Positions 9,338-33,670 are shown, counted from the first letter of the stretch. The stretch is 64,000 nt of DNA from an uncultured archaeon (GCA_964373695.1 CAYJVT010000002.1:1020-65019); one strand, 5' to 3'. Numbers and translations are program-made. The notes: generated by a model not told the origin, from the sequence alone.

Positions 9338-9383
9338 AGATAAACATGGTAAATTAATATTTTAAGTTCCATAATAACATGCA

Positions 9384-10097
9384 ATGGAATCTGTCAGATA
9401 TGCAATCATGCCCGGTGATGAAACTGAACCGTTCTCATTCTTCTTGCTCAATGCATGGCTCCAGTCAAGAATCGGCACAGGCAATGAAACCGACGGCGAC
9501 GAGGACGTTAACATTTACATTTCAGGCGTTCTTGCCAGAGATGCATTCGGCAGATACAATACCGACAATCCTGAAACGGGTCTGAGAAGGAAAGGCATTG
9601 ATGTCGAATTCGCCGCCGAGTCAGCCGAGACACAAAGGAGAAGATTCGAGATTTACGCAAGGAATGCTGACCTCAGGCTGCTGAATGCCGGCATATACCA
9701 AGACCCAGAAATAACAGGCTGCGGGGACGTGTTTTATGAAAATGCGGCATCTGCCCTGGCGGGAACCAGAATACGAAGCATGATGAAATTATTCCTGGAC
9801 AAACTGGCGTCCGGATACGACACTTACGTCGAGGTCCTGCGCCACATGAAAGCCGTGCATCTCGGCCTGATAGAAAGACTGTCCATAGAGGAAATGGCTG
9901 CGTTCCAGAGCGGGGCGCAGGAAGCGGCAATGCCGTACATGAAGAGGCTGGCATATGGATGGTTCGCAGACGCCTACGCCGATGCAAGGAATGCAACAGA
10001 ACCGGCAGCCCGCGCCGAGGCCGAAGGACGCGCCAACTCGATAGCCGCCCAGCTGAGAGCGATAGATCCGGGCTTCAGGTTCGACGGCTTCCAATAA
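9384..10097 (+). CDS. Hypothetical protein
   Basis: 237-aa ORF in coding-like composition. No recognisable motifs. Confidence 0.5.
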   Translation: MESVRYAIMPGDETEPFSFFLLNAWLQSRIGTGNETDGDEDVNIYISGVLARDAFGRYNTDNPETGLRRKGIDVEFAAESAETQRRRFEIYARNADLRLLNAGIYQDPEITGCGDVFYENAASALAGTRIRSMMKLFLDKLASGYDTYVEVLRHMKAVHLGLIERLSIEEMAAFQSGAQEAAMPYMKRLAYGWFADAYADARNATEPAARAEAEGRANSIAAQLRAIDPGFRFDGFQ

Positions 10098-10142: not shown

Positions 10143-11282
10143 ATGGCAGATGAATTTCCAACAATGTTTGTAGCCGGCATCACGATACTTGCGGTGCTGC
10201 TCATCATATTCAACGTCAACACGTTCGTCCAGCCGTCGATATCAGGAACTGGATTCCTGACTAAGGAGAGTTTTGACGAGAAGGACCTGAAAGGCGCGTT
10301 CTTCGCCGGGACCAACTTCACGAACCAGTTCGCGGCTTTCAACTTCGACTTTGCCGTGGACAACCTTGCAGGCGCCAAGACGGCAAGCATAGGCCAGAGA
10401 GAAGTGTCCAACGGCATATTGTTCGGCGAGAAGTCAGTCAGATATACACTGGAGAAAGGCGAATCCGTGACGGTAAAGTTCAGGATAGAAAGCACAAACG
10501 CCCTGACACCGCTCATTTTCAGGCTTAACGGCAATGAATACAAGTATGACCTCAAGGAAGGCATCCATGAAGTGACGATAGACGAGCCCTTCGAAGACGG
10601 AAGCGTGCTTGAAATAACTGCTGCAAGCTCCAGCTGGAAAATATGGGCCCCGTCCCTCTACCGCCTGGATGGAATAAGCATAAACGTGAAGGCGTTCAAG
10701 GAGGATGTCGACCAGTACATATTCAACGTAGGCGACGAGTTCGAGACGCTGCAGGGCGGAAGGATGGACCTGTACCTGAAGGAGAACGCAGGCATACTCA
10801 AGATAGAGCTTAACGGCAAGGTTATATTTGACGGAATAGCGAGGGATTTCCAGCCAATACGCTTCTCCAGCAACGACATAATGAAAGGGCAGAACATACT
10901 CACATTCACGGCCACTCCCGAATCGAAGTTCTCAGGTGAGGCCACGATGGTCCTGTTCTACAAGCATGGCGAGCAGAAGGAAGTGAAGGCGATAATCAAC
11001 CTGACCGAGGCCGAGCAGAAGGCCGTAAAGCGCGGAACTGTAAGGTTCAAGATAGTCGACGTCAGCAAAAACGGCGGCGTCGCCATCCGGATAACGCATG
11101 GCGGCGAGACAACGTTCAGCACTTTCGCCCGCGCAGAGACCGGCACATACTCATTCGAGTTCACGAAAGACGAGGTCAGGCAGGGCATAAGCGTCGTCTC
11201 GATAGAGGCGATAGACGGGGCCTCCTTCCTGGTGAAGGGGCTTGACGTCAAGATAGAGAAGGGTCTTTTTATCAGCTTATGA
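10143..11282 (+). CDS. Hypothetical membrane-anchored/secreted beta-rich protein
   Basis: N-terminal hydrophobic anchor FVAGITILAVLLIIF followed by a beta-strand-rich 350-aa ectodomain. Confidence 0.55.
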   Translation: MADEFPTMFVAGITILAVLLIIFNVNTFVQPSISGTGFLTKESFDEKDLKGAFFAGTNFTNQFAAFNFDFAVDNLAGAKTASIGQREVSNGILFGEKSVRYTLEKGESVTVKFRIESTNALTPLIFRLNGNEYKYDLKEGIHEVTIDEPFEDGSVLEITAASSSWKIWAPSLYRLDGISINVKAFKEDVDQYIFNVGDEFETLQGGRMDLYLKENAGILKIELNGKVIFDGIARDFQPIRFSSNDIMKGQNILTFTATPESKFSGEATMVLFYKHGEQKEVKAIINLTEAEQKAVKRGTVRFKIVDVSKNGGVAIRITHGGETTFSTFARAETGTYSFEFTKDEVRQGISVVSIEAIDGASFLVKGLDVKIEKGLFISL

Positions 11283-11949: not shown

Positions 11950-14900
11950 ATGGCAGAACAAGATCGTACAATAGAAGATATAAAAAACGATATTTTGAGT
12001 GAAAAAAGAAATATCAAGAGGAGACTACAAAGTGATGAAGACCCTAGACAAATTGCAGAACAACTCATCTCTAGATACGCATTACGCAATCCACATATTA
12101 CCAATAGGGATTGGATTCATGATGGTGTAGTTTCTGCTATTAATGAGATAATAGGAGAAACTACTGGCACTACAATTGGTGGTGGCCACCCAAAATATAA
12201 CCCCTTACAACATCGTGGCCCTCATTATATAGAAGAAAAACACTTTGTGGTAAAGATACTTCAACCGAATCCGCATAATCCTAGGGAAAATAATATAGAA
12301 CTTCATCAAGAGCCTACAACAGGACAGCAGTTTCATGAAAAAATTGTCTTCGATGCAGAGGTTACAGGCGGCAAAGGACCCTTTAGATATAAATGGGAAG
12401 TCCAGGTATCTGGACAGGGATTTACTACTTGGATTCACTTCTGGCCTTACGATAAAAATGGAATTGCTTATGACTGGAGTGATGAAGTTGACAGCAGGGA
12501 TTATAAATTCTTCAAGGGCGGCCTAGATACCATAAGGAACAACTTCCACTATGCCCAGCCGCTTCATGCCACCCATATGGATGACCCGTGGGCAAGCCTG
12601 CCTCCAGGAACTTATAGGGTGCGCGTAACAGTCAGGGATAGCACAAGAAAAGAAGCCCAGGCGGAAACGACTTTCACCGTCGGCGGCCTGATACCGGATA
12701 AAAATTACATAAAAGCCCATATAACAAGCCCTGCGGAATCCGGACACATCAAGGAAATAGAACTGCATACGGACGTGTCAACAGGGGACCGGTGGCACGA
12801 GGCTGTAACATTCAACTGCGAGGTCACGCACGGCATCACGCCCTACACGTATGAATGGAAGATAGACAACCATACCGTATGGCAGGGCACGAACGACATG
12901 TTCAAAACGTTCCAGAGAGGCGGGCAGAAAAATCCTGTCGCAGAGCCCAATAACTCGGATGCAAACCTTGACATACCGGCCGCAAGCCTCACGGAAGGCA
13001 GGCATGAAATCGTGCTGACAGTCACCGACAGAAGGAGAAATACCGCGACAGCAAAATGTTTCCTGATAGTCACATCAAAGCCAAGGGGGAAAATGCGTGC
13101 TGTAATAACACAGCCGAGAGATGAAGACCCAAAAAAAACTTTCGGCAAAGAGCTCAAGGGGGAAAAGGAAGAATCATATCACGAGCCTATAACATTCGAC
13201 TGCGAAGTTTCCGGCGGCTCCGGCAACTACGACTACAAGTGGACTGCCACTTCAATGGATCAGGATCTCAACGAAACTTCGGCTGAAGTCCCGCTAAATT
13301 TCGTGAGCCGGAAAACTTTCACGAGAGGCGGGCAAACGCATCCTGTAAATAATGAAAACGACCCGCAGGCAAGCCTTAGCGAAGGCCTGTACCAGATAAC
13401 ACTCAAGGTCACCGACATAAACAACACGAACGAAACTGCAGAAGCAACAACATGGATACGCATCGGCGAGGAGGAAGGCACTCATGCGCGCTCCCTTTCA
13501 TCGTACGTCGGGATGAGGCCGGCAGCGGCGCGCATAGGGGGCGGCTGGGCGGGCGGGCCCAGGGGTGCTTACACGAGGCGGCAGGCCATGACAGGAATAG
13601 GAGAACGGGCCATGCACAGGGTGCAGCATCCCATGTCGGGCTCGGGCAGAGCCCTCGGTTTCATCAGAAGCGAGAAGAAGGAAGGGACAGGAACATGGGG
13701 CAAAGAGGGCATCCGCGGAGCTATAAGGTCCAATATTGCAGTGCAATCGGCAGTAAACCAGGGAAAGCGCGAGCTCAACAGGTGGGCCAGGCAGATGTTC
13801 AGCCCGGAATTCCAGAGGCTTCAGCGCGAACTAAGAACCCTCACGGATACATGGAGGAGAAGGAGAAGGGAATGGGTTGATGTAAGAAACCAGGCAAGAA
13901 GGCAGTATGGCAGGTGGAGGGATTATCTTAAAGGGCAGGGGGGAGCTGATGCCCTGACAAATTCAGTCACTATCGCCCAGCAGCGCGGACAGGTAAACGA
14001 GGTCCAGGCCAGGCTCCTCATAGACCAGATAAACCAGGCTTACAACAGGTTCACGAAATCCGAGGAGGAGCTGCTGAATTTCAGCCACAGCAAAGCCAGT
14101 GAATTGCAGACAACCATAAATAACAGGATGGAAAAGGTTGCAGAACAGGTTGCAGGCCGCATCATCTACAGGTTCAAGATAAAAGACGGGGCCGCACAGG
14201 ACGATATAAAAAGTGAGCTGAAAGGAGAGGCCCAGAAAATCGCAACAAGCATGGTGGAGAAGGGCAGGGACACCCTATCGGGGCCGCTTGGAATGATAAG
14301 AAGCGCCTCCATGGGAGCAAAAACGGTAGGCGCCTCCTACTACAGCTTCTGGGAATTCTGGAGGGAAATACTGACAGCACCTTTCATATGGGGAACGCTG
14401 TTCGCAGTCGTCCAGTATTTCTTCATACTTACATATGTAGGCTACAATCCGACATACCTTCTGATATATCCGATAATAACGGCTTTATTCACTTTTCTAG
14501 TTTACTTCGGGGACCTTTTCGAGGGCGGGGCGCGGCCTTTTGACCTGTTCAACCATTTAGCATCGGGTGCCATCATCGGGTACACGGCAGTGCTGCTGAT
14601 GCTGGCCTTCGGATTCCAGACTTTTGTCAGCACCGGATGGTTCTGGGGGATATGGATATTCTTCAGCCTTATCGGCATCTTCCAGTTCTACCATTCAGGC
14701 GGATTCAGGATAGTGCTCCAGGGCGGCGTCATAATCCTCCTCTTCGCGTACATAGCGATGGGGCCGTACTCGGGATACTATCAACAGGTCATAGACCAGG
14801 TAAGAGGGCCTGTTGTCGTCGCGTACGATGCGGTGGAGAAGACGGTCGGCGACGTCTACCTGCTGGCAACGAACCCGACGGAGTGGTACGCCAGGCAGCA

Positions 14901-17034
14901 GGTCCAGAATGTAAGGCCGGAGAAGTCAACTGTCGCGGCGCGGGGACTGGAGATCACGCTGTTCGACGCGCTGCCTGCGAGCGTGCCGGCCGGGCAGCAG
15001 TTCGCAGTTACAGCTGTCCTGAAGCACGAAGGCGTGCTGGACAACGTCACCGACATGAAAGTGGCGTTCTCGTGCAATCAGTGGTGCCTAATTGACGGCG
15101 TCACTGCCACTGATAAAGGCGTAAGCAGGACAAGCAAAGGGGCTTTCATGATAAATAATGCCGTGAATGGCCAGAGCATCCTGCTGAAGGGCGAATCAAT
15201 GGTGGCATCGTTCTCCGGCTTCATTTCAAAATCAGTGACCAACAGGGAGAACGAGTACAGGCTGGCAAAGGTCACGATGAACGTTTCGTACAAATACTCA
15301 ACAACAAGCTCGCTCTTCGTCGAGGTGGTAAACAGCGAGGAGCTCAACAAGAGGACCAACGAGGGAAAGAACTTCAGGAACGTGGTCGCGATAGGCAAGA
15401 ACGGCCCGGCGCAGCTTTCGCTGAACGTGGGACCGCAGCCCCTGATTGCCGGGAAGAACGCTCTGCTGCTTGTGTCCGTATCGAATTCGCGCGACGACAG
15501 TTCCGTAATACTGAATGAAGGAAGCGAAATCACGATAAGGATGCCGCGTTCAGTCGGCAGCGGACTGAACTGCGACGGATTTGTCCATGAAGAGACGGAC
15601 GGATATCCGGACATTACCGGCGTGGAGGTCGTGAGGTACAAAGTCTCGCCGAAGACAGCCGACAGGGTGGAGATAAAGGCCTCGGACTTCAATTCCATAT
15701 TCCCGTTCATATGCAGCTTCACGGCAAATGAAGTACGCGGCGCCGGCCCGCTCACGCAGACAGGGCTCGTGACGGCAGAACTGCCTTCATACGAGTTCAC
15801 GGTCATAAAGGAGAAGGAAGTGCCGGTAACAGTGCCGCTAGGCATCCTGTTCGACTCCAATGAAAGGATTTGCCGTGGAGCCTCAGGCCAAGCCGAATGC
15901 ATCTCGCTTGACAAATGCTATTATGAGGATAAGGGAGCCGCAGAAAGCTCCCTGCTCAGCGACTTGTGCCACTCTTGCGCTCAGGAGCCTACATGCGACC
16001 AGTTCATGTCGCAGGAAAGCTGCGAGCAACAGTCAGTATCGCAGTGCGGCCTCTCCAACTGCGGCTGGGATGCCGACGCGAGGAACGAGATAGGCGTGAC
16101 GACAGGCAAGTGCTTCCAGAAGCCCAACCAAATAAACGGTAACGTGAGGAACGCAATACTTTCAGGCACAATAATTGAAAAAATAATACAGGCGTCGAAA
16201 GCCGCCGGATTTGACAGGGAAGATACGAAGAGGGTGCTTGCCGTGGCGGCGCAGGAGAGCGGATTCAGGATGGTCTCCGGAGACGGCGGCGATTCGGCAG
16301 GAGTTTTCCAGCTGAATAAAAGAGCACATCCGACATGGTTCGACCCCCTGCTGTCCGGATGTCCAGACGGCCAAACCGCCTTAGATGAGGACTGCAACAT
16401 CAAGCTTGGCGTTGACTTCATCAAGAGCCTGCACATCCAGTATTTCAACGACAACCCAAGAACTTATGCCTGTGAGAGAGTATACAGCGGTTGGAACGCA
16501 GTTTTCAGATATTATAATGGATGGAACTCGCCATCCACATGCAATGATTTGACAGTAAGTTATGTAGAGAAAGTAAACGGGTGGCTCACATGCAGGGACA
16601 AGGCAAGCTGTGTTGAAAATGCGATAGTCAGGAATATCGATGATGTACGCGGATATGAGAACTTGATGGAAGCCGTATTCGCAGGGAAAGGGAGTGTGGA
16701 TTTCTGCAGGGAAGCCAGAATCGATATAAACAACAAGGCAAACAGCTGGTCATATGGACAGGGATTGTGTATAGAAGGGGAGGGAGGATGCGAAGGGGAC
16801 GGGCAGTGCGGCAAGCTGTTTAAAGACGTCAGAATAGACACCTCAGGCGTCTGCGTGAAGCCTGGCCATGATAATTATGACGATGTTGCGCATCAATTCG
16901 TGAATGCAGGAAAACTCCAGAGCGGCGCCGGCATCTGCTGCTATTCAGATGAAAGCGGCAACATAAATGCAAACAGGTGCAAAGCCGCTTACAGCCAGTG
17001 GTTCGGCTCATCGCCGTTATTCTCCACTGTATAA
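11950..17034 (+). CDS. Giant (1694 aa) multidomain membrane protein: 3 PKD-like repeats, Gly/Arg-rich linker, multi-TM block, beta-rich ectodomain, lytic-transglycosylase (SLT/GH23)-like domain, Cys-rich tail
   Basis: Three ~130-aa repeats with CEV(T/S)GGxGxYxYKW ... G(T/R)YxVxLTVTD (PKD-like). Five or six TM helices around aa 790–930. SLT signature AVAAQESGF...GDSAGVFQLNK...YSGWNAVFRYYNGWNS. Many Cys in CxxC/CxC arrangements C-terminally. Confidence 0.85.
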   Translation: MAEQDRTIEDIKNDILSEKRNIKRRLQSDEDPRQIAEQLISRYALRNPHITNRDWIHDGVVSAINEIIGETTGTTIGGGHPKYNPLQHRGPHYIEEKHFVVKILQPNPHNPRENNIELHQEPTTGQQFHEKIVFDAEVTGGKGPFRYKWEVQVSGQGFTTWIHFWPYDKNGIAYDWSDEVDSRDYKFFKGGLDTIRNNFHYAQPLHATHMDDPWASLPPGTYRVRVTVRDSTRKEAQAETTFTVGGLIPDKNYIKAHITSPAESGHIKEIELHTDVSTGDRWHEAVTFNCEVTHGITPYTYEWKIDNHTVWQGTNDMFKTFQRGGQKNPVAEPNNSDANLDIPAASLTEGRHEIVLTVTDRRRNTATAKCFLIVTSKPRGKMRAVITQPRDEDPKKTFGKELKGEKEESYHEPITFDCEVSGGSGNYDYKWTATSMDQDLNETSAEVPLNFVSRKTFTRGGQTHPVNNENDPQASLSEGLYQITLKVTDINNTNETAEATTWIRIGEEEGTHARSLSSYVGMRPAAARIGGGWAGGPRGAYTRRQAMTGIGERAMHRVQHPMSGSGRALGFIRSEKKEGTGTWGKEGIRGAIRSNIAVQSAVNQGKRELNRWARQMFSPEFQRLQRELRTLTDTWRRRRREWVDVRNQARRQYGRWRDYLKGQGGADALTNSVTIAQQRGQVNEVQARLLIDQINQAYNRFTKSEEELLNFSHSKASELQTTINNRMEKVAEQVAGRIIYRFKIKDGAAQDDIKSELKGEAQKIATSMVEKGRDTLSGPLGMIRSASMGAKTVGASYYSFWEFWREILTAPFIWGTLFAVVQYFFILTYVGYNPTYLLIYPIITALFTFLVYFGDLFEGGARPFDLFNHLASGAIIGYTAVLLMLAFGFQTFVSTGWFWGIWIFFSLIGIFQFYHSGGFRIVLQGGVIILLFAYIAMGPYSGYYQQVIDQVRGPVVVAYDAVEKTVGDVYLLATNPTEWYARQQVQNVRPEKSTVAARGLEITLFDALPASVPAGQQFAVTAVLKHEGVLDNVTDMKVAFSCNQWCLIDGVTATDKGVSRTSKGAFMINNAVNGQSILLKGESMVASFSGFISKSVTNRENEYRLAKVTMNVSYKYSTTSSLFVEVVNSEELNKRTNEGKNFRNVVAIGKNGPAQLSLNVGPQPLIAGKNALLLVSVSNSRDDSSVILNEGSEITIRMPRSVGSGLNCDGFVHEETDGYPDITGVEVVRYKVSPKTADRVEIKASDFNSIFPFICSFTANEVRGAGPLTQTGLVTAELPSYEFTVIKEKEVPVTVPLGILFDSNERICRGASGQAECISLDKCYYEDKGAAESSLLSDLCHSCAQEPTCDQFMSQESCEQQSVSQCGLSNCGWDADARNEIGVTTGKCFQKPNQINGNVRNAILSGTIIEKIIQASKAAGFDREDTKRVLAVAAQESGFRMVSGDGGDSAGVFQLNKRAHPTWFDPLLSGCPDGQTALDEDCNIKLGVDFIKSLHIQYFNDNPRTYACERVYSGWNAVFRYYNGWNSPSTCNDLTVSYVEKVNGWLTCRDKASCVENAIVRNIDDVRGYENLMEAVFAGKGSVDFCREARIDINNKANSWSYGQGLCIEGEGGCEGDGQCGKLFKDVRIDTSGVCVKPGHDNYDDVAHQFVNAGKLQSGAGICCYSDESGNINANRCKAAYSQWFGSSPLFSTV

Positions 17035-17185: not shown

Positions 17186-17328
17186 TTGTATGAATTTTTA
17201 TTCAAAGCCACAGTCTTATATCCCTTCAAATTGACAATATAAACAAAAAGAGAGGCGCCATGCGCAAACGCCTCTCTCCGGCCTGCATGAAAGCGCGGCC
17301 TTGCAGCCCTCCGCGAGGAGTTGGAGGA

Positions 17329-19050
17329 CTACTTCCCGATGCCGCGGTCTTTGCGGAACTTCTTCGGGTTCCGCGCGAGGTCAACGATGTCCTTCTGCAC
17401 ATTATCAATCTCGAGGAAGAGCGAGTCGATGCTGCTCTTGACGGACGGCATGTCTCTCACTGCATCATGCAGAGAGGCGATGCGCTCTTCCATCGCCTTG
17501 ATGCTGTCACTGCTGGCCGCCGCGTTGCGCTGCACGGCGCACAGCATATCGCGAAGGTCGCCGACCTGCTGAGCCAGGGTATCGCAGACCGCCTTCTTCC
17601 CGGCTGGCGCAGCAGGCCCGCCGAGACGCTGCCGGATGCGGGCGTCGATGCGGCTCCGGTCGCCGGGCCAGGTGACTTTCCCAGGCTCGAGGAGACCGAC
17701 CGCCGGAGCTGTCGGGAAGCCTTCCCCGCGGAGGACAACCATGTCGTTGAACTTGATGCCTTCGGGCACAGTGACGATGTACGGCTCGCCCCAGTCATCG
17801 TACTGTACGAGCGGGTATTTGGTCGAGATAGAGGTCGTAGACCTGTAGCCTGCTGTGTAGGCCGTCGGCGGCTTCATGTCGAAAGATGCCGGCAGCTCAA
17901 CCACATCCGCGTAGTCGACCAACCAGAAGGTCACCAGGCCTGCCTTCATGTTCTTGAGGAACTCACGCGCCGGAGCTTCCTCCCTCTTCCGTATCTCGAC
18001 GACAACCTGGTTCTTCCCGCCCGAAAACTCCGGCGCGTCGTACTGCACCCGGAGCTTGGTGATGACCTCGCCGGCGCGCAGCGTGGCGATGTCACGCAGC
18101 ACGCTCTGCCAGAGGAAAGGCTGACCGTCCTGCACGATGACCATATCCTGCCGCTTCGGGATGCGGAACGCCGACGTCCGACGCCTCAGCTCCAGCGGCC
18201 CGCCAGGAGTGTACTCGAGCTCGTCGCCCGGGATGAACATTCCAGCGATATTGCGACACTCCTCCTTTGTTCCTGCGAAGCGCAGCTCCTCTCCTTTCGT
18301 TGTTGTGGGGCGGTACTCGGCCGTCCCGTCTGGATTCACTACAACCTTCTCGCTGGCCAGCACGAAGGTCACGACATTGACTTGTGAAGGACCGGGGTAT
18401 ACTGCAGGCGCCTGGACGGCGGCTTCTGGCTCTTCGTCGTTTGGAGTAACTTTTGGAGTAACTTTTGGAGTAAACCACGTGCCCGGGTTCCACCAGTCGG
18501 CGGCGGCGGGGGAGGCGGCGAAGATGACGGCCAGAACCACCATGCCTTTGAGTAACTCTCTGGCATGGATGATGTGTCCTCTGACGCCGTCCCCTTCGTC
18601 GTCATCGGGTGTAACCCTTGAGATTCCGTCCAATTCTAACATAATCTTCCTGATGTTATTCCGACGGCGCCCGCGCTTGCGCATCATGCAGACGGCGAGT
18701 GGGATGCCGCCGACGAAGAAGATGATGTTGAGGAACAGTACCCAGCCTGCCAATGCATTCATCTTGCTCTCCCTCTTGTTGCGCACGTGCACTTCATCAC
18801 GTGAAGTTGTGGGTGAGGACTGCTTGTTGTGAGTGGGTTCGGCTGTGACAGCGGCCTGATTATGGCCTTCAGGACTGCCGGAAATCACGGCCGCGAAAAC
18901 AGAGGCCACTACCACGAGAACCAGTATTGTGACACCGGCCATGATTGCCGCTCCGAACCAGCTGAGGCCGAGTCTCACGCAGATACGAAGCAGGTACAGA
19001 ACTGCCAGTATCAAAGCCAGTACGGCTACTGCATAGGGGATGATGCTCAT
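17329..19050 (-). CDS. Hypothetical membrane protein with PKVTPKVTP repeat, encoded in a high-GC island
   Basis: 573-aa ORF. N-terminal TM helices, a second TM block (~aa 100–125), a Pro-rich tandem repeat, and a C-terminal coiled-coil. A long antisense ORF also exists because of high GC; minus strand chosen for its TM/coiled-coil organisation. Confidence 0.5.
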   Translation of the reverse strand: MSIIPYAVAVLALILAVLYLLRICVRLGLSWFGAAIMAGVTILVLVVVASVFAAVISGSPEGHNQAAVTAEPTHNKQSSPTTSRDEVHVRNKRESKMNALAGWVLFLNIIFFVGGIPLAVCMMRKRGRRRNNIRKIMLELDGISRVTPDDDEGDGVRGHIIHARELLKGMVVLAVIFAASPAAADWWNPGTWFTPKVTPKVTPNDEEPEAAVQAPAVYPGPSQVNVVTFVLASEKVVVNPDGTAEYRPTTTKGEELRFAGTKEECRNIAGMFIPGDELEYTPGGPLELRRRTSAFRIPKRQDMVIVQDGQPFLWQSVLRDIATLRAGEVITKLRVQYDAPEFSGGKNQVVVEIRKREEAPAREFLKNMKAGLVTFWLVDYADVVELPASFDMKPPTAYTAGYRSTTSISTKYPLVQYDDWGEPYIVTVPEGIKFNDMVVLRGEGFPTAPAVGLLEPGKVTWPGDRSRIDARIRQRLGGPAAPAGKKAVCDTLAQQVGDLRDMLCAVQRNAAASSDSIKAMEERIASLHDAVRDMPSVKSSIDSLFLEIDNVQKDIVDLARNPKKFRKDRGIGK

Positions 19051-19821: not shown

Positions 19822-20634
19822 TTAAACGCCCATAACGAGGCGCGAGAAATTGCGGAGGCCGGGGCCCAGGCCGAGGACGAGGACTACTATCTTCAGGAAA
19901 GTCCTTTTCTGCACCTCGTTGGAGAGCTCCTTGTCAAGGGCGTACAGCACGAGGGGCACGACGACAAGCTTCAGAATGAACATGGAGGCGGGGCCCAAAA
20001 GGCCTATAATAAAGCCAGGCAGGACGTGCTGCTCAAAGTAGTTTGGAAAGAACTGGAGCGCCACGAAGGTCGTGGTGGCGTCGAACATATGCACGGCAAT
20101 TAGGAATGAATTCTCTTCAGAGAGAAAGTTCCTGATTCTTGCGCTGCCAAGCTTTCTTCCTGCAAAAATCGCTGCTGCCCATGCTGCTGTGATGCCTAGC
20201 ATGGCGTACAATGCAAAGGCGCTTTGCAGCGTCATCTGCGATACTGCAATAATGACAAAAATCATGCCGAGCGAAAACCATATCTTGTAATAAGGCGTTT
20301 TTGTCCATCTTTCCATGAGCTTTGAAAAGAGCAAGGCAGCCAGAGCAATGACAAAAATTGAAATATATATCAATGGAGTTATGAGGAATATGTTCTTGGC
20401 AAGGCCGGCGAATTCGCGGTAATCCTCAAGGGCGCGCAGGAAGCCTCCCAGCATCACGAAGGGCACTATGCTGAAAAAGAACTTCCTGTCTATCTCTATT
20501 CGAAGGCGCCGGAGCAATCTGTAGGTTAAAAACGCCGCCGCTATCAGCAAGACAGCGTACACAGCAGTGTTATAAACATTGTATCCGCTGCCGTTCAGTA
20601 TTGGGTCGACAAAATATTCCTTGAAGAAACCCAT
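19822..20634 (-). CDS. DUF63-family polytopic membrane protein
   Basis: 270 aa, about 7 TM helices. N-terminus MGFFKEYFVDPILNGSGYNVYNT and the FEQHVLPGFIIG motif resemble archaeal DUF63 proteins. Confidence 0.65.
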   Translation of the reverse strand: MGFFKEYFVDPILNGSGYNVYNTAVYAVLLIAAAFLTYRLLRRLRIEIDRKFFFSIVPFVMLGGFLRALEDYREFAGLAKNIFLITPLIYISIFVIALAALLFSKLMERWTKTPYYKIWFSLGMIFVIIAVSQMTLQSAFALYAMLGITAAWAAAIFAGRKLGSARIRNFLSEENSFLIAVHMFDATTTFVALQFFPNYFEQHVLPGFIIGLLGPASMFILKLVVVPLVLYALDKELSNEVQKRTFLKIVVLVLGLGPGLRNFSRLVMGV

Positions 20635-20670: not shown

Positions 20671-21729
20671 ATGAAATCGGCGTATATAGCTGTTCTCTTG
20701 CTCGTTTTTACAGCCGGATGCACCGGACTGTCCGGCGTGTTCGGGGGCGACATACTCAACATAAAGCAGAACCTCATCCAGGAGGGGCAGAAGGACATAA
20801 TCGTCATAAAGGATGTCTCGACGATACCCAAATCCCCCATGCTCCCTGAACAGTCGTTCGTGCTTACGATGCTTCTGGAGAACGTCGACAAGACCGAGGA
20901 CGCCACGAATGTCGTGGTGGACCTCTTCAACGCACCGACCGTGAAAAGCGACAAAGAGGAGTCCCGGGGAAGCGTATGCAATGCCGGAAGCGGAAGCGTA
21001 TGCCTCCCGGACAAGTGCAAGAGTAGTGAAAACGGAAAATGCATTGTCGAGACAACAATGCTTCCTGGAGAACAGATTCCGGTCAATTTCTACCTGAAGA
21101 CGCCAACTGAGGATGAAATAGTAGGCATAGAGACCAAGCCGGCCCTCGACTACAGGGTCACATACGACTTCGAGTCGTCATCGTTATATATAATGCCGTC
21201 AGTCAACCTGGACGAGATAATAAAGAACCAGAGGAGCAACGACAAGGTCAATGTCCAGGTGACGAAGTCCTACGGCACCGGCCCTGTCAGGATTGACATG
21301 GACCTCTTCGGCACGCCGTACATACTTTCGGGACAGTCGGCGACATTCATATTCAAGATAACGAATACAGGAGTGGGCAACGTCATAGGCTCCCAGATAG
21401 ACGCCGGAAATTTTGAGGTAAGCATACCGAAGAGCCTGATAGGAAGCGGCAGCCTTATGCTTCCTGGAGGCGGCGTCTTCGAGTCCGGCCAGTATACGCA
21501 GACGACAGAGAGGTTCTCGTGTAGTGGTGATGAAACGTACGTGACATGCACGAACGCCGACGCCATACAGATGTACAAGGACCAGACGCGCGGCTCGCTG
21601 CGCTTCGAGGTGCAGGGAGTGGCCGACATAAACCAGCCCTTCGTATCGTACGACATAAGGGCGTCTGTGAAATACAGGTACGAGTTGCGCGGCACCCAAG
21701 AGATAACTGTAAAGCCGTTTGAAAGCTGA
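20671..21729 (+). CDS. Secreted lipoprotein, paralog 1 of 4
   Basis: Signal peptide plus lipobox LVFTAGC. Beta-rich. C-terminal YRYE...ITVKP strand motif shared with the downstream paralogs. Confidence 0.7.
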   Translation: MKSAYIAVLLLVFTAGCTGLSGVFGGDILNIKQNLIQEGQKDIIVIKDVSTIPKSPMLPEQSFVLTMLLENVDKTEDATNVVVDLFNAPTVKSDKEESRGSVCNAGSGSVCLPDKCKSSENGKCIVETTMLPGEQIPVNFYLKTPTEDEIVGIETKPALDYRVTYDFESSSLYIMPSVNLDEIIKNQRSNDKVNVQVTKSYGTGPVRIDMDLFGTPYILSGQSATFIFKITNTGVGNVIGSQIDAGNFEVSIPKSLIGSGSLMLPGGGVFESGQYTQTTERFSCSGDETYVTCTNADAIQMYKDQTRGSLRFEVQGVADINQPFVSYDIRASVKYRYELRGTQEITVKPFES

Positions 21730-21734
21730 TTTTT

Positions 21735-22604
21735 ATGAGATATGCAATAATCCTTGCATTCCTGATAGCCGCGAGCGGATGCGTCTCCCAGAGCGCCTCC
21801 TATGGCGGGCTGGTTGTCAGCATGTTCGCTGACCCGCCGCAGGTATTCCAGAACCAGGCCACAACGCTTTTCATCGACATAGACAATAGGGACGTGAAGA
21901 AGGTCAACAATGTCGTCTTCGAGGTGTTTGACACAGGCATCATGCGCATCATGGATGGCACAACCGTTTCGGCATGCAGGAAATCCTTCCCCAAGCTAGT
22001 GCCGAAGGAATTCCAGACTTTCTCATGCAGGCTGGCAGCAGGGAGCGTTGGCGAGACCATTGTCAACAGAATAAGCGCCAAAACCACTTTCAGCGCCGAG
22101 CTGAACGCGGTGCAGCTCATAGAAATGATATCCAGGCAGGAATACGAGAGGAGGAAGGCGGCCGGCACCTTCATCACAGCGCCAAGGAAATATACTTATT
22201 CCGACAGCAACGTGGCGCTTGACATAGAATTCAGCGAGGATATGCCGGTGATAGAAAGGAGCGGAAAGAGGTACTTCATACACATGACCGTCAGGAATAC
22301 AGGGAACGGCTACATAAGGGAGCTGGAGCCCGGTGATTTCATAGTCACCCAGAAAACGTCTGAAAGTTTGCAGATACTTCCAGACATAGAAACCGTGAGT
22401 GTTATCAACACCCAAGCCGACAACCTCGTCAGGTGCGACGACTTCGGGGAGAAGCTTTCACCAATAGGCGACAAGTTCCCCAGAGTGACGTGCGAGTTCG
22501 TGCCTCCCAAAAAAATAGGCGTCATAGGCAATTACCCAATGGAAGTGAAGATAAACTACGATTACGAGACGAGGCAGAATCTCAACATAAGAATAATAAA
22601 ATAA
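21735..22604 (+). CDS. Secreted lipoprotein, paralog 2 of 4
   Basis: Lipobox LIAASGC. Shared C-terminal KINYDYETRQNLNIRI motif. Confidence 0.7.
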   Translation: MRYAIILAFLIAASGCVSQSASYGGLVVSMFADPPQVFQNQATTLFIDIDNRDVKKVNNVVFEVFDTGIMRIMDGTTVSACRKSFPKLVPKEFQTFSCRLAAGSVGETIVNRISAKTTFSAELNAVQLIEMISRQEYERRKAAGTFITAPRKYTYSDSNVALDIEFSEDMPVIERSGKRYFIHMTVRNTGNGYIRELEPGDFIVTQKTSESLQILPDIETVSVINTQADNLVRCDDFGEKLSPIGDKFPRVTCEFVPPKKIGVIGNYPMEVKINYDYETRQNLNIRIIK

Positions 22605-22658
22605 AGCCCAAAAAATCTTTTTAAAGAGGTGTAATCATAACTATAAAGAGGTATAAAA

Positions 22659-23633
22659 ATGAAGATTGGACTTTTCGCCGTTCTTGCTCTTATATTTGTG
22701 GTCGGATGCGTCGGCGGCGGCACGAGGCCGACCACTATCAGCGACACAGAAGGCGTCCGCATCTCGTCATTCACGGCAACGCCCTCTGTAACCGATGTTT
22801 TGTCGGGCGACACAGTCATATTCGATGTCGAGGTTGAGAACATCGGCGGGACAACAGCTTCTGATGTCGAGGTCACCCTGTCCGGCATAGAGAACCAGTG
22901 GAGGACGACCGGCGGCGTCCCGGCACCACAGGTCATAGCAAAGTCATTCTCATCATTGAGACCGCCGCAGGCGGAAAGGAACATAGCCGGCGACTTCCGC
23001 ATCGCGCAATGGGAATACATGACGCCAAGAATACCCGAAGGTCTCAGGACGCCGCTGAACATAGAGTCACGCGTCACTTATAAGTATAATACAAATGGCT
23101 TCCTCCAGCTTACCGCTGTGAACGACGAGGAATTCAGGAGGCAGCAGGTCATAGGCTCCTCGATAGACCCACCTGTAGTGCAGAACAGCGCAGGACCGCT
23201 GAAACTGTCGGTGCCGTCGACTGAGAAAAGCAGCTTCGTGATAGTTGACACAGCCTCGACCGAGCCCGAATTCATATACCCGCTCAAGATAGAATTCAGG
23301 AACGTCGGCGCCGGATTCCCCCTGGGAACTGATTCAACCAACCAGGGCAGGCTGACCGGAACCATAAAGCTTCTCGGGCCTGGCGTGGAGTTTTCCAGCT
23401 GCCTCGGTGTTACGAGCGGCCGCGAAGTCGCCCTCCAGGACAGCGGCGTCAATGACGTCATAGTCAAGCTCAGGGACACCCAGAATGTTCCTATCGTCTG
23501 CAACCTGAAATTTACAAAATCGGAATGGCAAAACACGCCCACCGACAAGGTGAGCCTTGTCTTCAACATAGACTACACGTATTTCACCAAGCAGACTGCC
23601 ACAGTGAACGTTCTGGGAAGAAGAACGGAGTAA
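22659..23633 (+). CDS. Secreted lipoprotein with CARDB-like N-domain, paralog 3 of 4
   Basis: Lipobox IFVVGC. FTATPSVTDVLSGDTVIFDVEVENIGGTTASDVEVTL matches the CARDB pattern. C-terminal NIDYTYFTKQTATVNVLG. Confidence 0.7.
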   Translation: MKIGLFAVLALIFVVGCVGGGTRPTTISDTEGVRISSFTATPSVTDVLSGDTVIFDVEVENIGGTTASDVEVTLSGIENQWRTTGGVPAPQVIAKSFSSLRPPQAERNIAGDFRIAQWEYMTPRIPEGLRTPLNIESRVTYKYNTNGFLQLTAVNDEEFRRQQVIGSSIDPPVVQNSAGPLKLSVPSTEKSSFVIVDTASTEPEFIYPLKIEFRNVGAGFPLGTDSTNQGRLTGTIKLLGPGVEFSSCLGVTSGREVALQDSGVNDVIVKLRDTQNVPIVCNLKFTKSEWQNTPTDKVSLVFNIDYTYFTKQTATVNVLGRRTE

Positions 23634-23685
23634 TTTTTTCTTTTGATTAAAGTATTTTATATACAGAAGTTTCTATAATTATTAC

Positions 23686-24945
23686 ATGAAGGTCTATCTT
23701 CTTATGATTCTCGGCCTTGTGCTCGCGGCCGGGTGCGTTTCGCAGGCGAAGAACCCGAACAACGGTATCATTATAAACGAGTTCACGGCCGACCCGAAGA
23801 TTGCGGAATACGGCGACACCGTGAGATTCTTCCTGGACGGCGAGAACATCGGGGGCACTACGGCCCAGTGCGTGACGACAGAGCTTTACGGGCTTGAGGG
23901 AGGATGGACGGACCTTACAGGACAGCTGTTCGCCATTCCGTATGTAGGGCAGACGATAAACGCCGGGCAGCCAGGCATCACAATAGGCTTCGAGTCGTGG
24001 GGATTCAACATACACAGGGTTAACGACCGGTGGGGAGGCTCCATTTTCTACAACGACCTAAGCGTCGAAGGCGGAAGGAGAATAGTCGCGTCCATTGAAG
24101 GCGGCGACTTCTCGGTCAGCGGCGGCTTTTACAGCATAACGACGGCTATAGACACGTCTTTCAGGAGATTCGCAGCAGATTATTGTACTTACATAGGCGG
24201 AAGGTTCCCTGGCAAGATAAAGTTTGAGCCAGTCCTCTCTCCGCCTCTTCCGGAAAGGAACAAGCCTGGGCAATCTTTCACTGCGGACTGGATTCTGAAG
24301 CCCCCTCTGATACCTGAGGGCCTGTCTGTCGACTATCCTGTAACAGCCAGGACGTCATTCTTCTACACGTCGAACGCGCAGGTTAACATACCAGCTTACA
24401 GCAAGGCCGAATACAAGAGAAGGCAGGACATAGGGGAAGCCGTCGACCAGCCGCTCAATGTCGTCAACACCCATGCGGCCCCGATACAGGTCGGTATAAC
24501 CAGGGGCGCAAGTCCCATGGTTGTCAACACCGACACTACATTTTCGGCCCTGCCGGAAGAGACTTTCAATTATCTCATTGAACTGCGGAACGTAGGACAG
24601 GGATATCCCCTGCCTTTCAGCGACGTGCAGACAACCGTAGGGAACGACATAAGCGTCGAGAGCGGATTTGTCATCGCGACGATGAGCATAGCAGGCCCTG
24701 GCGCGCGTTTCGAGGACTGCCTGGGCCAGAGCGGACAGGAAGTTCTGATAGGCCCTGATATAGTCGCGAACCTGGTGAAGCTGCGCTCCGACGGAAAGGC
24801 CCCCTTCGGATGCAAGGTGGCGATAAACAAGGGCGCATGGCAGACGACGCCCGTCGGCACGGTCAGCATAACGTTCAACATAATGTACAGGTATTATGTG
24901 GACAAGCACGCAACAGTGACCGTGATAGGGCCGTCAAGGTCTTAG
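23686..24945 (+). CDS. Secreted lipoprotein with CARDB-like N-domain, paralog 4 of 4
   Basis: Lipobox LVLAAGC. FTADPKIAEYGDTVRFFLDGENIGGTTAQCV. C-terminus NIMYRYYVDKHATVTVIG is near-identical in pattern to paralog 3. Confidence 0.7.
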   Translation: MKVYLLMILGLVLAAGCVSQAKNPNNGIIINEFTADPKIAEYGDTVRFFLDGENIGGTTAQCVTTELYGLEGGWTDLTGQLFAIPYVGQTINAGQPGITIGFESWGFNIHRVNDRWGGSIFYNDLSVEGGRRIVASIEGGDFSVSGGFYSITTAIDTSFRRFAADYCTYIGGRFPGKIKFEPVLSPPLPERNKPGQSFTADWILKPPLIPEGLSVDYPVTARTSFFYTSNAQVNIPAYSKAEYKRRQDIGEAVDQPLNVVNTHAAPIQVGITRGASPMVVNTDTTFSALPEETFNYLIELRNVGQGYPLPFSDVQTTVGNDISVESGFVIATMSIAGPGARFEDCLGQSGQEVLIGPDIVANLVKLRSDGKAPFGCKVAINKGAWQTTPVGTVSITFNIMYRYYVDKHATVTVIGPSRS

Positions 24946-26509: not shown

Positions 26510-26595
26510 TGGGCTCGGCAGGAATTGAACCTGCGGCCTCCTGCGTGTGAAGCAGGCGTCATACCAATGTCCGCGATGCTCTAGACTACAAGCCC
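26510..26595 (-). tRNA. tRNA-Val(CAC) with ~13–14-nt D-loop intron
   Basis: Minus-strand GGGCTTG...CGAGCCC acceptor; anticodon arm CCTGC-TTCACAC-GCAGG; T-arm GCAGG-TTCAATT-CCTGC. D-region is 30 nt instead of 17 (GTC-TAG[AGCATCGCGGACAT]TGGTAT-GAC). Confidence 0.8.
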
Positions 26596-31254: not shown

Positions 31255-31695
31255 ATGAAGGGCCAGAACCAAATAATAAATGAAGTGCTTCTTTTTGCCA
31301 TAGGAATGTCAATAGCGGCCGCTGTCATAATAAACTTCCAGACGGTCCAGAGAACGTCAAGCGAAACGACAATATACAGCAACTTTGAAAACGTTGCCAA
31401 CACCGTGATAAACGGGATAACCGAGGTCATAAAAAGCGAAAGGGGCAAAGTCGTGGTCGCCATACCAGACACCATAGCCTCGATCCAGTACAAGATAAAG
31501 GTATCGTCCGACTACCTAATAATATCCAGCATAAATGACCCGAAAATTAATATCACGAAGAGGCTATTTAATATATCCAGCAGCCATATTATACAGGGCG
31601 AGGTTCCCAGCGCTTCAAGATACATCGAAATAACGTACGAAACTACGCCATTCACCAAGCTCGTGAGGATAAAAAGGGCGGAAAAATATGTCTAA
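31255..31695 (+). CDS. Archaeal type-IV pilin-like protein
   Basis: MKGQNQIINEVLLFAIGMSIAAAVI class III leader. Confidence 0.65.
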   Translation: MKGQNQIINEVLLFAIGMSIAAAVIINFQTVQRTSSETTIYSNFENVANTVINGITEVIKSERGKVVVAIPDTIASIQYKIKVSSDYLIISSINDPKINITKRLFNISSSHIIQGEVPSASRYIEITYETTPFTKLVRIKRAEKYV

Positions 31696-33670
31696 GACAA
31701 TAACCATAAACGGCAGGAAAGTCAGACTGAATGGCCGCCAAGACAGCAGCTACGGCATGAAGGTTTCTGGCCACAAAGTTGTCATAAAACATAGAATAGA
31801 GAAAGGTCATGAAGAAATAGAAGAACTGAAAAATAAGATAAAGACCCTAGAGAAAAAGATAGAGGAAAAGAACAGAAGATTACCGGTAAGGATAGAGTTG
31901 AGGAAAGAGGAACAGAAGAACGAAATTTCCCCGGACGAAATAAGGAATCTCATAAAAGAAGAACTCTCGTACATGTCGCCGAAGGAGCAGCCCGTTCTAG
32001 CACAGAAAAGGAAAATACGCGTCAGGCTGGCCGGCATGATGCCGTCGGTGACTCCGGCCTCGTCAGCACAAATATCCGGAAAAATATCAGTGGAAACTCC
32101 GTCTACCAGAACAGAAACCGTCGAAGGTATAGAAATACCAGACATCGTCTCAGAAAGATACGACACCGACGAGGCATTCGACCCATCATCCGTGTCCATG
32201 AAATATCCGCTTATCCCGAAGAACCCGAAACAGGGGGGAAGGGTCTATTCCTACGCCGAGATATTCTTCGACAAGATGTCCGGGGAGATGATATACAAAC
32301 TCCACGAGCCGGAGCTCAATGACGGGACTAAAATTTTCCTGAACGATATAAAGGACTACATACAGGAAAAGATAGACGTGAATTTCGGCCATATAAAGAA
32401 GGAAGACGCAGTCGGATATATGATGAATGTCTTTGACAAGGCCATCCGGTTCCTCAGAATAAAGACCGACGAAAGGACGCTGGACGACATAAGATACTAT
32501 ATTGTAAGGGATTTCATAGGACTTGAGAAGATAGAACCCCTTCTCCAGGACTCGCAGATAGAGGACATCTCATGCGACGGCATAGGCATACCTATATTCG
32601 TGTACCATAGGAACAGCAAAATAGGCTCCATAAAAACCAACATCAAGTTTGACGACATGGAATCTCTGGACTCCTTCATCAACAAACTGGCCGAAAGGTG
32701 CGGCAAATCAGTCTCCGTGGCAAAGCCCCTGCTTGACGGATCGCTCCCTGACGGGAGCAGAATCCAGGCCACGCTTGGAAGCGATATCGCCAGGCATGGA
32801 AGCAATTTCACCATAAGGATGTTCACTGAAAAGCCGATAACCCCGATAGACATCATAAAAACCGGGATGTGCGACCCCAAAATCATGGCAGCCATGTGGT
32901 TTGCAGTGGAATACCAATCGTCCATCCTCGTATCCGGCGGGACTGCCACTGGAAAGACCTCCCTCCTGAACGCATTCTCGCTTTTCATAAAACCCCAGAT
33001 GAAAATAGTCAGCATAGAAGACACGGCTGAACTGAGGCTTCCACATTCCCACTGGGTGCCGGAAGTCGCAAGGGTATCCATATCTTCCGGCAGGGAGGTC
33101 GACATGTTCGAGCTCCTCAAGGAATCGCTAAGGCAGAGGCCTGACTACATAATAGTAGGCGAGGTCAGGGGAAAGGAAGCCTACGTCCTTTTCCAGCAAA
33201 TGGCCACGGGACATGCGGGCTTCTCGACAATACACGCGGACAACTTCCAGAAACTTGTGGACAGGCTGACAACGCCCCCGATAGAGCTGCCCCCGAATCT
33301 CCTCGAGAATCTGGACTTCGTGGTGTTCATAAGCAGGTTCAAGCACGGCAACAAATACAAGAGGAGAATCAGCTCAATAACAGAGATCACCGGAATAGAC
33401 AATATCAAGAAAGCGCCTATCGTAAACGAAATCGTAAAATGGAACCCCAGAAACGACCTGTTTGATATAAAAAGCGGTAGCACCGTTCTCAAGAAAATAT
33501 CCGAGAGGTCCAATATGACACCGAAGGATGTGCAGGAAGAAATAAGGAGAAGGGCGCAGATACTCGAATGGATGGCAAAAAAGAACATAAATGATTACAG
33601 GAAAGTATCATCCATCATAAACCTGTACTATCTTTCCCCCGAATTCGTTATGAAGAAAATGGGTGTCTGA
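31688..33670 (+). CDS. Type-IV pilus/archaellum assembly ATPase (FlaI/ArlI–TadA/VirB11 family) with long N-terminal extension
   Basis: Walker A GGTATGKTS; Walker B/Asp box DYIIVGEVRG; His box ATGHAGFSTIHAD. The ~120-aa coiled-coil/charged N-terminus is not found in canonical FlaI. Confidence 0.9.
   Translation: MSKTITINGRKVRLNGRQDSSYGMKVSGHKVVIKHRIEKGHEEIEELKNKIKTLEKKIEEKNRRLPVRIELRKEEQKNEISPDEIRNLIKEELSYMSPKEQPVLAQKRKIRVRLAGMMPSVTPASSAQISGKISVETPSTRTETVEGIEIPDIVSERYDTDEAFDPSSVSMKYPLIPKNPKQGGRVYSYAEIFFDKMSGEMIYKLHEPELNDGTKIFLNDIKDYIQEKIDVNFGHIKKEDAVGYMMNVFDKAIRFLRIKTDERTLDDIRYYIVRDFIGLEKIEPLLQDSQIEDISCDGIGIPIFVYHRNSKIGSIKTNIKFDDMESLDSFINKLAERCGKSVSVAKPLLDGSLPDGSRIQATLGSDIARHGSNFTIRMFTEKPITPIDIIKTGMCDPKIMAAMWFAVEYQSSILVSGGTATGKTSLLNAFSLFIKPQMKIVSIEDTAELRLPHSHWVPEVARVSISSGREVDMFELLKESLRQRPDYIIVGEVRGKEAYVLFQQMATGHAGFSTIHADNFQKLVDRLTTPPIELPPNLLENLDFVVFISRFKHGNKYKRRISSITEITGIDNIKKAPIVNEIVKWNPRNDLFDIKSGSTVLKKISERSNMTPKDVQEEIRRRAQILEWMAKKNINDYRKVSSIINLYYLSPEFVMKKMGV

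Follow-up and report, generated by a model that had tools for sequence, protein, structure and literature searches.

Four consecutive genes in the genome of a small groundwater archaeon (Aenigmatarchaeota) raise the question of what a tandem set of apparent lipoproteins does at the cell surface, and whether the genes that flank it take part in the same function. The genes, here called p1 to p4, are co-oriented and occupy positions 20671-24945 of a 64 kb stretch (GCA_964373695.1, CAYJVT010000002.1:1020-65019), referred to below as the window. We propose, with a probability of about 0.5 for the statement as a whole, that p1-p4 are unglycosylated, lipid-anchored surface proteins that assemble with a giant, putatively wall-lytic protein encoded nearby for cell-cell contact. 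The parts of this proposal differ in strength. It is very probable that p1-p4 are paralogous extracellular lipobox proteins and reasonably likely that a neighbouring AliA-type protein lipidates them, whereas a putative complex with the giant protein is a tentative suggestion that we rate below even odds.

The four open reading frames (ORFs) are closely packed, with intergenic gaps of 5, 54 and 52 bp (p2 opens 5 bp past the p1 stop codon), and the 3' end of p4 overlaps a convergent EndoQ-like gene by 12 bp (coordinates of all features are collected in Table 1). The predicted proteins begin with MKSAYIAVLLLVFTAGC (p1), MRYAIILAFLIAASGC (p2), MKIGLFAVLALIFVVGC (p3) and MKVYLLMILGLVLAAGC (p4). Each signal peptide has an M-K/R start and 11-14 hydrophobic residues, followed by AGC, SGC, VGC and AGC, respectively, and is of the Sec type, since a twin-arginine motif is absent. 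The ORF coordinates and N-termini thus agree exactly with an earlier note made from the sequence of this stretch, which had described four consecutive genes with a signal peptide ending in these lipoboxes. Among the 139 ORFs of at least 100 amino acids scanned in the window, a strongly hydrophobic (h-) region (mean hydropathy ~3.1) followed by [AGS]C was found only in p1-p4. Four further matches to the pattern lie in weakly hydrophobic ORFs, at least two of which are antisense to longer ORFs. The four proteins carry the only convincing lipoboxes of the window.

To follow these genes in other genomes, orthologs for profiles were collected by a word-index search with p3, which returned 17 proteins, and by a pattern scan using one genome per species, which returned 35 loci. 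All 35 loci come from Aenigmatarchaeota or from unclassified archaeal metagenome-assembled genomes, and one of them (JACPAH010000005.1) is 95% identical. The lipobox is retained in 103 of the 113 family members from these loci, with the consensus [LF][VAI][SA]GC. The ten members without a matched lipobox are attributed, overall rather than member by member, to N-truncated ORFs (e.g., in loci L013, L017, L019 and L025) or to h-regions missed by the pattern (e.g., L011, L015 and L027). In the ortholog alignments A1 and A2 the lipobox Cys is invariant and the Gly at -1 nearly so.

Whether the four proteins are related to one another depends on the method used. In BLASTP comparisons only p3 and p4 are significantly similar (E 4e-41 plus 8e-14), while the remaining pairs are marginal (E 2e-4 to 0.08) and align partly via their signal peptides. 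Searching the ORFs of the related loci with p1-p4 gave a separate ortholog series for each protein, and when the four ortholog alignments were compared with HHalign, all six pairs were full-length and colinear at probabilities of 99.2-100%. With the signal peptides cut at the Cys, the six pairs still reached 98.6-100% (E 1e-16 to 2e-76): p2 matches p1 at 99.2%, p3 at 99.3% and p4 at 98.6%, p1 matches p2, p3 and p4 at 98.6-99.2%, and p3 matches p4 at 100%. As a negative control, an unrelated anchored family of the same locus gave a probability of at most 1.4% against the p families. All pairs are therefore similar beyond their signal peptides, and the paralogy proposed in the earlier note holds, even though BLAST alone would have spoken half against it. 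The p4 protein corresponds to a p3-like protein with an insertion of ~95 amino acids in its first domain. Single-sequence phmmer searches recover p1 and p2 orthologs at E ≤ 2e-9 (mostly 1e-14 to 1e-76) and matches across families only at E ≥ 4e-8. Because these searches cleanly separate the p1 and p2 orthologs and the gene order is fixed, each paralog appears to be old and to have been kept. Taken together, the profiles indicate that p1-p4 are four ancient full-length paralogs built on one common plan.

AlphaFold2 models were obtained from the p3 alignment (predicted local distance difference test, pLDDT, 83.7; predicted template-modelling score, pTM, 0.77) and from the p1 alignment (pLDDT 87.0, pTM 0.79). 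Both models consist almost entirely of beta-strand and present two beta-sandwich domains with a short helix between them. In p1 the domains span residues ~29-178 and 193-344, with the helix at 180-189 and a Cys-rich insert at 103-124; in p3 they span 33-155 and 173-319, with the linker helix at 156-165. In these two modelled paralogs the first domain starts roughly 10-16 residues past the lipobox Cys, and each domain closes with a long beta-hairpin that bears an x-Y-x-Y motif. The C-terminal signature N-I-x-Y-x-Y...T-V-x-V, which had been ascribed to all four proteins, is the last long hairpin of domain 2 in the models; it is exact in p3 (NIDYTY...TVNV) and p4 (NIMYRY...TVTV) and only approximate in p2 (INYDYE...NIRI) and p1 (VKYRYE...ITVK). 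A comparison of domain 1 with domain 2 bears on the question of an internal duplication and gave a weak HHalign probability of at most 45%.

The earlier note had also assigned CARDB-like domains to two of the proteins. This division does not stand, as all four share the two-domain plan and none reaches the Pfam threshold for CARDB or DUF11. Searches of Pfam, NCBIfam and PHROG gave no match above threshold for p1-p4, and PDB sequences gave none. DUF11 (PF01345) scores 16.7 bits on p3 against a cutoff of 24.6 and does not match p1, p2 or p4; among 18 p3 relatives it recurs below threshold in 8, on domain 1, and CARDB matches 3 at E ≥ 0.14. True membership of either family was rejected, all matches being sub-threshold. 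The models do show an immunoglobulin (Ig)-like beta-sandwich fold resembling solved CARDB structures, and hence "CARDB-like fold" is a fair description of all four proteins if it is not taken to mean family membership. Compared with the surface domains CARDB (PF07705) and DUF11, other Ig-like folds score equally well or better, among them complement and alpha-2-macroglobulin MG domains, transglutaminase barrels and an HAP2/Fsx1 domain, and the two-domain unit with its linker helix found no whole-chain relative in a Foldseek search of the PDB (template-modelling scores, TM-scores, at most 0.29). The nearest two-domain architectures in that search, within the same limit, are the adhesins ClfB, Cna and RbmA. 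Like the N2-N3 regions of the MSCRAMM proteins ClfB and Cna and like Vibrio RbmA, p1-p4 would place two tandem Ig-like sandwiches at the cell surface; unlike them, they have a lipobox instead of sortase anchoring, show no sequence similarity and no evidence of a dock-lock-latch cleft, and the TM-scores are very low.

Two other protein classes were considered from the fold. The C-terminal strand motif could recall a donor-strand pilus or thread subunit, which is not favoured because the C-terminal hairpin is a high-confidence, integral part of domain 2 in both models and the proteins are presumed to be lipid-tethered. Substrate-binding proteins of ABC transporters are a common class of prokaryotic lipoproteins. 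This identity was rejected as well: the models are beta rather than alpha/beta, p1-p4 have no Pfam match to substrate-binding proteins, and the conserved locus holds no transporter genes.

An unexpected feature of the family is a near-absence of N-glycosylation sequons. Sequons were defined as N-x-S/T in which x is not P, and expectations were obtained from shuffles. The four proteins of the window (1384 amino acids) contain none where 10.5 are expected, and 0 of 2000 shuffles reach 0. The depletion extends to the orthologs, which hold 45 sequons in total against 282 expected (p1, 1 vs 62; p2, 8 vs 55; p3, 31 vs 93; p4, 5 vs 73). Many of those in the p3 family apparently belong to a conserved 'YNTSG' motif that closes domain 1 and contains a sequon even in the consensus of the family. 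Across 149 cluster representatives (one per 50%-identity cluster), the module part has 59 sequons against 356 expected, a ratio of 0.17, and 112 of the 149 have none; their C-terminal extensions have 6 against 48. The depletion is specific to the sequon, since the reverse motif S/T-x-N and the related motifs D-x-S/T, Q-x-S/T and N-x-A/G occur at 0.7-1.6 of expectation in the p1-p4 orthologs, and the reverse motif matches its expectation in the 149 representatives (354 observed, 354 expected). Control proteins behave normally, with 43 vs 45 in EndoQ-like proteins, 13 vs 15 in AliA and 25 vs 27 in 12 other anchored ORFs, the last being a weak control of uncertain topology. In the giant protein, the part after the transmembrane block is depleted (16 vs 58) and the N-terminal part is not (21 vs 27). 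This pattern fits an extracellular position of p1-p4 and of the C-terminal part of the giant protein, together with selection against N-glycosylation. The invariant C248 and C281 of the p3 family and the abundance of Cys in p1 and in the C-terminal part of the giant protein likewise support an outside location for both. The surface location suggested in the earlier note is thus backed by paired conserved cysteines, by sequon avoidance and by adhesin-type C-terminal domains in longer relatives. Host attachment or S-layer association, the roles it named, are plausible; p1-p4 show neither abundant sequons nor any S-layer Pfam domain.

The gene that lies divergently next to p1 encodes a DUF63/AliA-type membrane protein, and its start codon is 36 bp from that of p1. 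The match to PF01889, labelled AliA_AliB in precomputed Pfam annotation, covers profile positions 3-269 of 269 (E 1.1e-67, 229.6 bits against a cutoff of 25). Residues R67, R261 and R265 are near-invariant in 17 orthologs and may correspond to the two conserved arginines published for AliA (HVO_2859), where AliB has histidines. AliA (arCOG02177) and AliB are needed for the lipidation of lipobox proteins in Haloferax volcanii (Hong et al. 2025, PMC12462473). AliA occurs in DPANN archaea (PMC12462473; PMC13631571), in which predicted lipoproteins are prevalent, and AliB is described as halobacterial only (PMC12462473). Like the lipoproteins matured by AliA and AliB in Haloferax volcanii, p1-p4 have a Sec signal peptide, a lipobox at its C-terminal end, an invariant Cys and a DUF63/AliA homolog in the genome, which here is adjacent. 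The characterised substrates are in contrast haloarchaeal, and their mature domains are unrelated. The proximity of the genes has a parallel, in that predicted lipoprotein genes frequently lie close to an ali gene (aliB), but the neighbourhoods reported for aliA itself consist of lipid-metabolism genes (PMC12462473), whereas here an aliA-type gene stands beside a lipoprotein array.

This arrangement recurs. Related loci share the layout giant (+), DUF63 (-), p1, p2, p3-like, p4-like (+), EndoQ-like (-), with a constant order of the paralogs, and the DUF63 gene is divergently upstream of p1 in 17 of the 18 loci with enough upstream sequence. The surroundings are core chromosome (topoisomerase VI, thermosome, aminoacyl-tRNA synthetases). 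The earlier note's view of an "accessory" surface system is therefore doubtful for a locus that resides in the core chromosome and is syntenic across the phylum. Some loci depart from the layout. The sole locus without an adjacent AliA gene has two small ORFs (144 and 141 amino acids) upstream of p1 (L022:1812-2668), which, guessed from their N-terminal sequences, could represent a nucleotidyltransferase/HEPN-like pair. The 95%-identical relative L004 has a spacer of ~1.4 kb between AliA and p1 (6287-7695), against 36 bp in the window, and a p2 ORF (8748-9947) that encodes 399 amino acids against 289, which suggests recent insertions within the locus.

The giant membrane protein, encoded upstream of the AliA-type gene, provides a second link to the array. 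Weak Pfam matches to PKD/Ig-like repeats at residues ~130-500 are followed by a basic coiled region and by a hydrophobic transmembrane block at ~805-940, in which about five helices can be seen by eye and two are flagged at threshold by a hydropathy scan. An N-in/C-out topology would agree with the sequon counts. Directly after the transmembrane block, hmmsearch found matches to the hidden Markov models of p3 (E 5e-10), p1 (E 4.5e-07) and p4, with orthologs of the giant protein matching down to 1.7e-13. An alignment of this region from ten orthologs was matched by HHalign to p1 (97.3%, E 2e-11, 275 columns), p3 (97.5%, E 7e-12), p2 (94.9%) and p4 (91.8%). These comparisons indicate that residues ~993-1300 are a fifth paralogous two-domain module.

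Downstream of this module the giant protein has a Cys-rich region and carries a candidate lysozyme-like/SLT (GH23-type) domain. The Pfam evidence for it is SLT_3 at E 3e-5 and SLT at E 0.009. A profile of seven orthologs (A3) searched against the PDB found MltC first (E 6e-4), followed by goose-type lysozymes and Slt70. An 'E-S' motif with a putative catalytic Glu (AQESGF...GVFQLN) is present, its E42-S43 being invariant in A3, and one homolog, P0208, bears the name 'transglycosylase SLT domain-containing protein' (PF01464). Large murein-like lytic-transglycosylase proteins have been reported from Pacearchaeota and Woesearchaeota in 2021 and read as binding or degrading the wall of a partner (PMC8204110). 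The giant protein shares with them its size, its DPANN origin, a predicted surface position and a candidate SLT/lysozyme-like domain, and the organism likewise lacks murein of its own. That family was reported to be specific to its two lineages (PMC8204110), and the protein here belongs to Aenigmatarchaeota; it is also polytopic, its long N-terminal stretch is predicted to lie in the cytoplasm, and it contains a paralog of the module of the four neighbouring lipoproteins, a combination that the 2021 study does not describe.

On the favoured reading, p1-p4 would be exported as precursors by Sec, and their invariant Cys17 or Cys16 would be lipidated by the divergently encoded DUF63/AliA neighbour. 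Removal of the signal peptide would then leave the proteins tethered on the exterior of the membrane. There they would meet the oligosaccharyltransferase, and may for that reason have been selected to lose N-x-S/T sequons and so remain unglycosylated. The four lipid-anchored modules and the fifth module of the giant protein would stand at about equal height above the membrane and could associate laterally into a hetero-oligomeric, membrane-proximal platform. Such a platform would hold or orient the lysozyme/SLT-like domain, to which some relatives would add further Ig-like, lectin-like or LysM domains, and would presumably serve to touch the glycan wall of a partner cell and to cut it locally.

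Several of our own observations weigh against this proposal, and some of them favour other explanations. Hetero-oligomerisation, which is putative, is its least certain step, and lipidation, signal-peptide cleavage and surface exposure are themselves deduced from sequence. The p3/p4-like genes vary from 1 to 5 copies per genome, a poor fit to a complex of fixed stoichiometry, and in the most divergent genomes the paralogs number only one or two, and neither AliA nor the giant gene is near them. The SLT domain falls below the Pfam gathering score (24.8 bits against 27). The variable copy number would be more readily explained if p1-p4 were independent monomeric adhesins or receptor-binding lipoproteins, each binding its own ligand or host surface, with duplication providing diversity and with no obligate complex or tie to the giant protein. 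This explanation also gains from the adhesin architectures found nearest by Foldseek, from the size and diversity of the family (1077 cluster representatives) and from the C-terminal additions of Ig-like (Big_5, Big_13), lectin-like (DUF1554) or LysM type in some longer members. These additions, being of a binding type, count for our own proposal as well. The LysM addition is a single case among 1707 sequences: a paralog at the p4 position (L011:8190-9548, +) whose last part is a Cys-rich linker followed by a LysM domain that, at 37 bits, passes the Pfam cutoff. Yet nearly all loci have one copy each of p1 and p2, deeply diverged and in a constant order, which argues for non-redundant roles rather than a diversifying array, and the giant protein next to them contains a homolog of their module. 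We therefore regard independent adhesins as somewhat unlikely. A structural role, in which p1-p4 would be anchors or main constituents of an S-layer-like or pseudo-periplasmic lattice and the SLT-domain neighbour would be unrelated, is in our view improbable. In its favour, archaeal S-layer proteins often contain tandem beta-sandwich domains, the locus is conserved across the lineage in the core chromosome, and a glycan-free surface could permit tight lattice packing. Archaeal S-layer proteins are, however, typically heavily N-glycosylated, and sequons are almost absent here; the proteins are small (~30-45 kDa), neither a lattice-type repeat nor a known S-layer Pfam family was found in p1-p4 or the relatives searched, and, according to a published survey, Aenigmarchaeota genomes possess separate S-layer genes (PMC8407114).

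The remaining doubts concern the anchor and its neighbour. Housekeeping neighbours, EndoQ-like downstream and aRF1-like further upstream, are as syntenic as the AliA-type and giant genes, so the adjacency may reflect general conservation of gene order and not coupling. The same observation would suit proteins that are not lipoproteins at all but carry an uncleaved anchor or are substrates of signal peptidase I, with another role for the Cys and a coincidental AliA neighbour. We know of no archaeal lipoprotein signal peptidase. Moreover, when the lipobox is written as [LVI][ASTVI][GAS]C, only p3 (VVGC) satisfies the strict bacterial rule at -3, while p1 (TAGC), p2 (ASGC) and p4 (AAGC) are relaxed there, with T, A and A. 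This explanation is nevertheless highly improbable, given that four families with only ~15-25% identity elsewhere share an essentially invariant G-C where the h-region ends, that their consensus matches the canonical lipobox quoted in PMC12462473, and that lipoproteins are reported to be prevalent in DPANN (PMC12462473). As for the sequons, their avoidance may be specific to the locus or general to the secretome of the lineage; the control of 12 anchored ORFs is small.

Table 1. Positions of the array, its neighbours and other features of the window (1-based, whole stretch)
Feature	Position	Strand	Description	Basis
Weak lipobox-pattern ORF	9789-10094	-	antisense to longer ORF	pattern scan
Weak lipobox-pattern ORF	12843-13157	-	antisense to longer ORF	pattern scan
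tRNA-Gly(GCC)	6696-6787	+	92 nt	ARAGORN
Anchored protein	10143-11282	+	379 aa, N-terminally anchored; directly upstream of giant gene	no Pfam match
Giant membrane protein	11950-17034	+	1694 aa, no signal peptide	conserved upstream of AliA
Predicted fifth two-domain module	14926-15849	+	aa ~993-1300 of giant protein, directly after transmembrane block	
Candidate lysozyme-like/SLT (GH23-type) domain	16189-16488	+	aa ~1414-1513 of giant protein	
573-aa ORF	17329-19050	-	between giant gene and AliA	
ORF overlapping the 573-aa ORF	17260-18387	+		
DUF63/AliA-type membrane protein	19822-20634	-	270 aa, divergent from p1	PF01889
p1	20671-21729	+	352 aa; signal peptide 1-16, Cys17 (codon 20719-20721)	ORF call + lipobox
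p2	21735-22604	+	289 aa, shortest paralog; Cys16 (codon 21780-21782)	
p3	22659-23633	+	324 aa; Cys17 (codon 22707-22709)	
p4	23686-24945	+	419 aa; Cys17 (codon 23734-23736)	
'tRNA-Cys'	26510-26595	-	86 nt, anticodon ACA at position 26	ARAGORN
PilB/T2SSE-type secretion ATPase	31688-33670	+		
Topoisomerase VI B	38650-41811	+	intein-interrupted	
Topoisomerase VI A	41822-44506	+	intein-interrupted	

Other features of the window deserve brief mention. The 379-aa anchored protein has a normal sequon content and, in L010, L030 and L033, phmmer matches that directly precede the giant gene, and it may belong to the locus; as a sixth paralog it was rejected, with HHalign probabilities of at most 1.4% against the p families. 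The 573-aa ORF, with ~3-4 N-terminal transmembrane segments, is opposed by an overlapping ORF on the other strand. It has a homolog only in L004 among the compared loci and no family match above threshold, and appears to have been inserted into the otherwise conserved locus in this lineage only. The guanine-plus-cytosine (GC) content is ~0.50-0.55 over most of positions 1-26000 (with dips to 0.46-0.48) and ~0.40-0.48 in most of 26000-64000, changing near the tRNA at 26.5 kb. This shift at ~26 kb suggested a mobile island or provirus beside the tRNA-Cys, an idea that was rejected: the block is probably not a recent island because it is syntenic across Aenigmatarchaeota, its flanks are housekeeping genes, and p1-p4 have no PHROG match. 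Judging by their lengths and the odd anticodon call, the predicted tRNA-Cys and tRNA-Gly may be archaeal tRNAs that contain introns or are otherwise atypical. Both topoisomerase VI subunits are interrupted by inteins with LAGLIDADG homing-endonuclease domains. The PilB/T2SSE-type ATPase gene is followed by several co-oriented ORFs up to ~37800, which together may form an archaellum or type IV pilus assembly cluster.

With regard to the range of the family, a filter-only HMMER scan with the p3 profile across 1.84 billion cluster representatives returned 1077 at E ≤ 1e-3 and 631 at E ≤ 1e-10. Those looked up that carry a source name are all Candidatus Aenigmarchaeota or unclassified 'archaeon', most metagenomic matches carrying no name, and the same holds for the source-named members among 34 homologs of p1. 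The family is thus apparently specific to Aenigmatarchaeota. It is undescribed, having no Pfam or NCBIfam model and no structure, although its kind is familiar from Ig-like surface lipoproteins and adhesin-like arrays. A description of the locus was not found in the literature searched on Aenigmarchaeota lipoproteins, transglycosylases and cell surface or on archaeal sequon under-representation; its architecture and the sequon avoidance are new observations. The AliA-type neighbour, the fifth module and the sequon avoidance are likewise absent from the earlier note.

These observations bear on the biology of the lineage in several ways. AliA and AliB, the first archaeal lipoprotein-lipidation enzymes, were identified only in 2025 in a haloarchaeon, and the locus supplies natural candidate substrates of AliA in DPANN, encoded head-to-head with the enzyme. 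The near-total and sequon-specific absence of N-glycosylation sites is unusual for an extracellular archaeal family and could flag other surface proteins that need to stay unglycosylated. Through the shared module, lineage-specific lipoproteins are tied to a giant lysozyme-like protein, which offers a concrete protein set for the largely unknown host-contact apparatus of Aenigmatarchaeota. In its boldest form, which we consider unlikely and put forward as speculation, the locus would encode an unrecognised Aenigmatarchaeota surface machine: a glycan-free platform of five paralogous modules, four anchored through AliA and one within the giant protein, that presents a lytic domain to the wall of a partner. 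If this were true, strict avoidance of N-glycosylation would be a functional requirement of the assembly, and these DPANN archaea would attach to or feed on peptidoglycan-walled (bacterial) partners.

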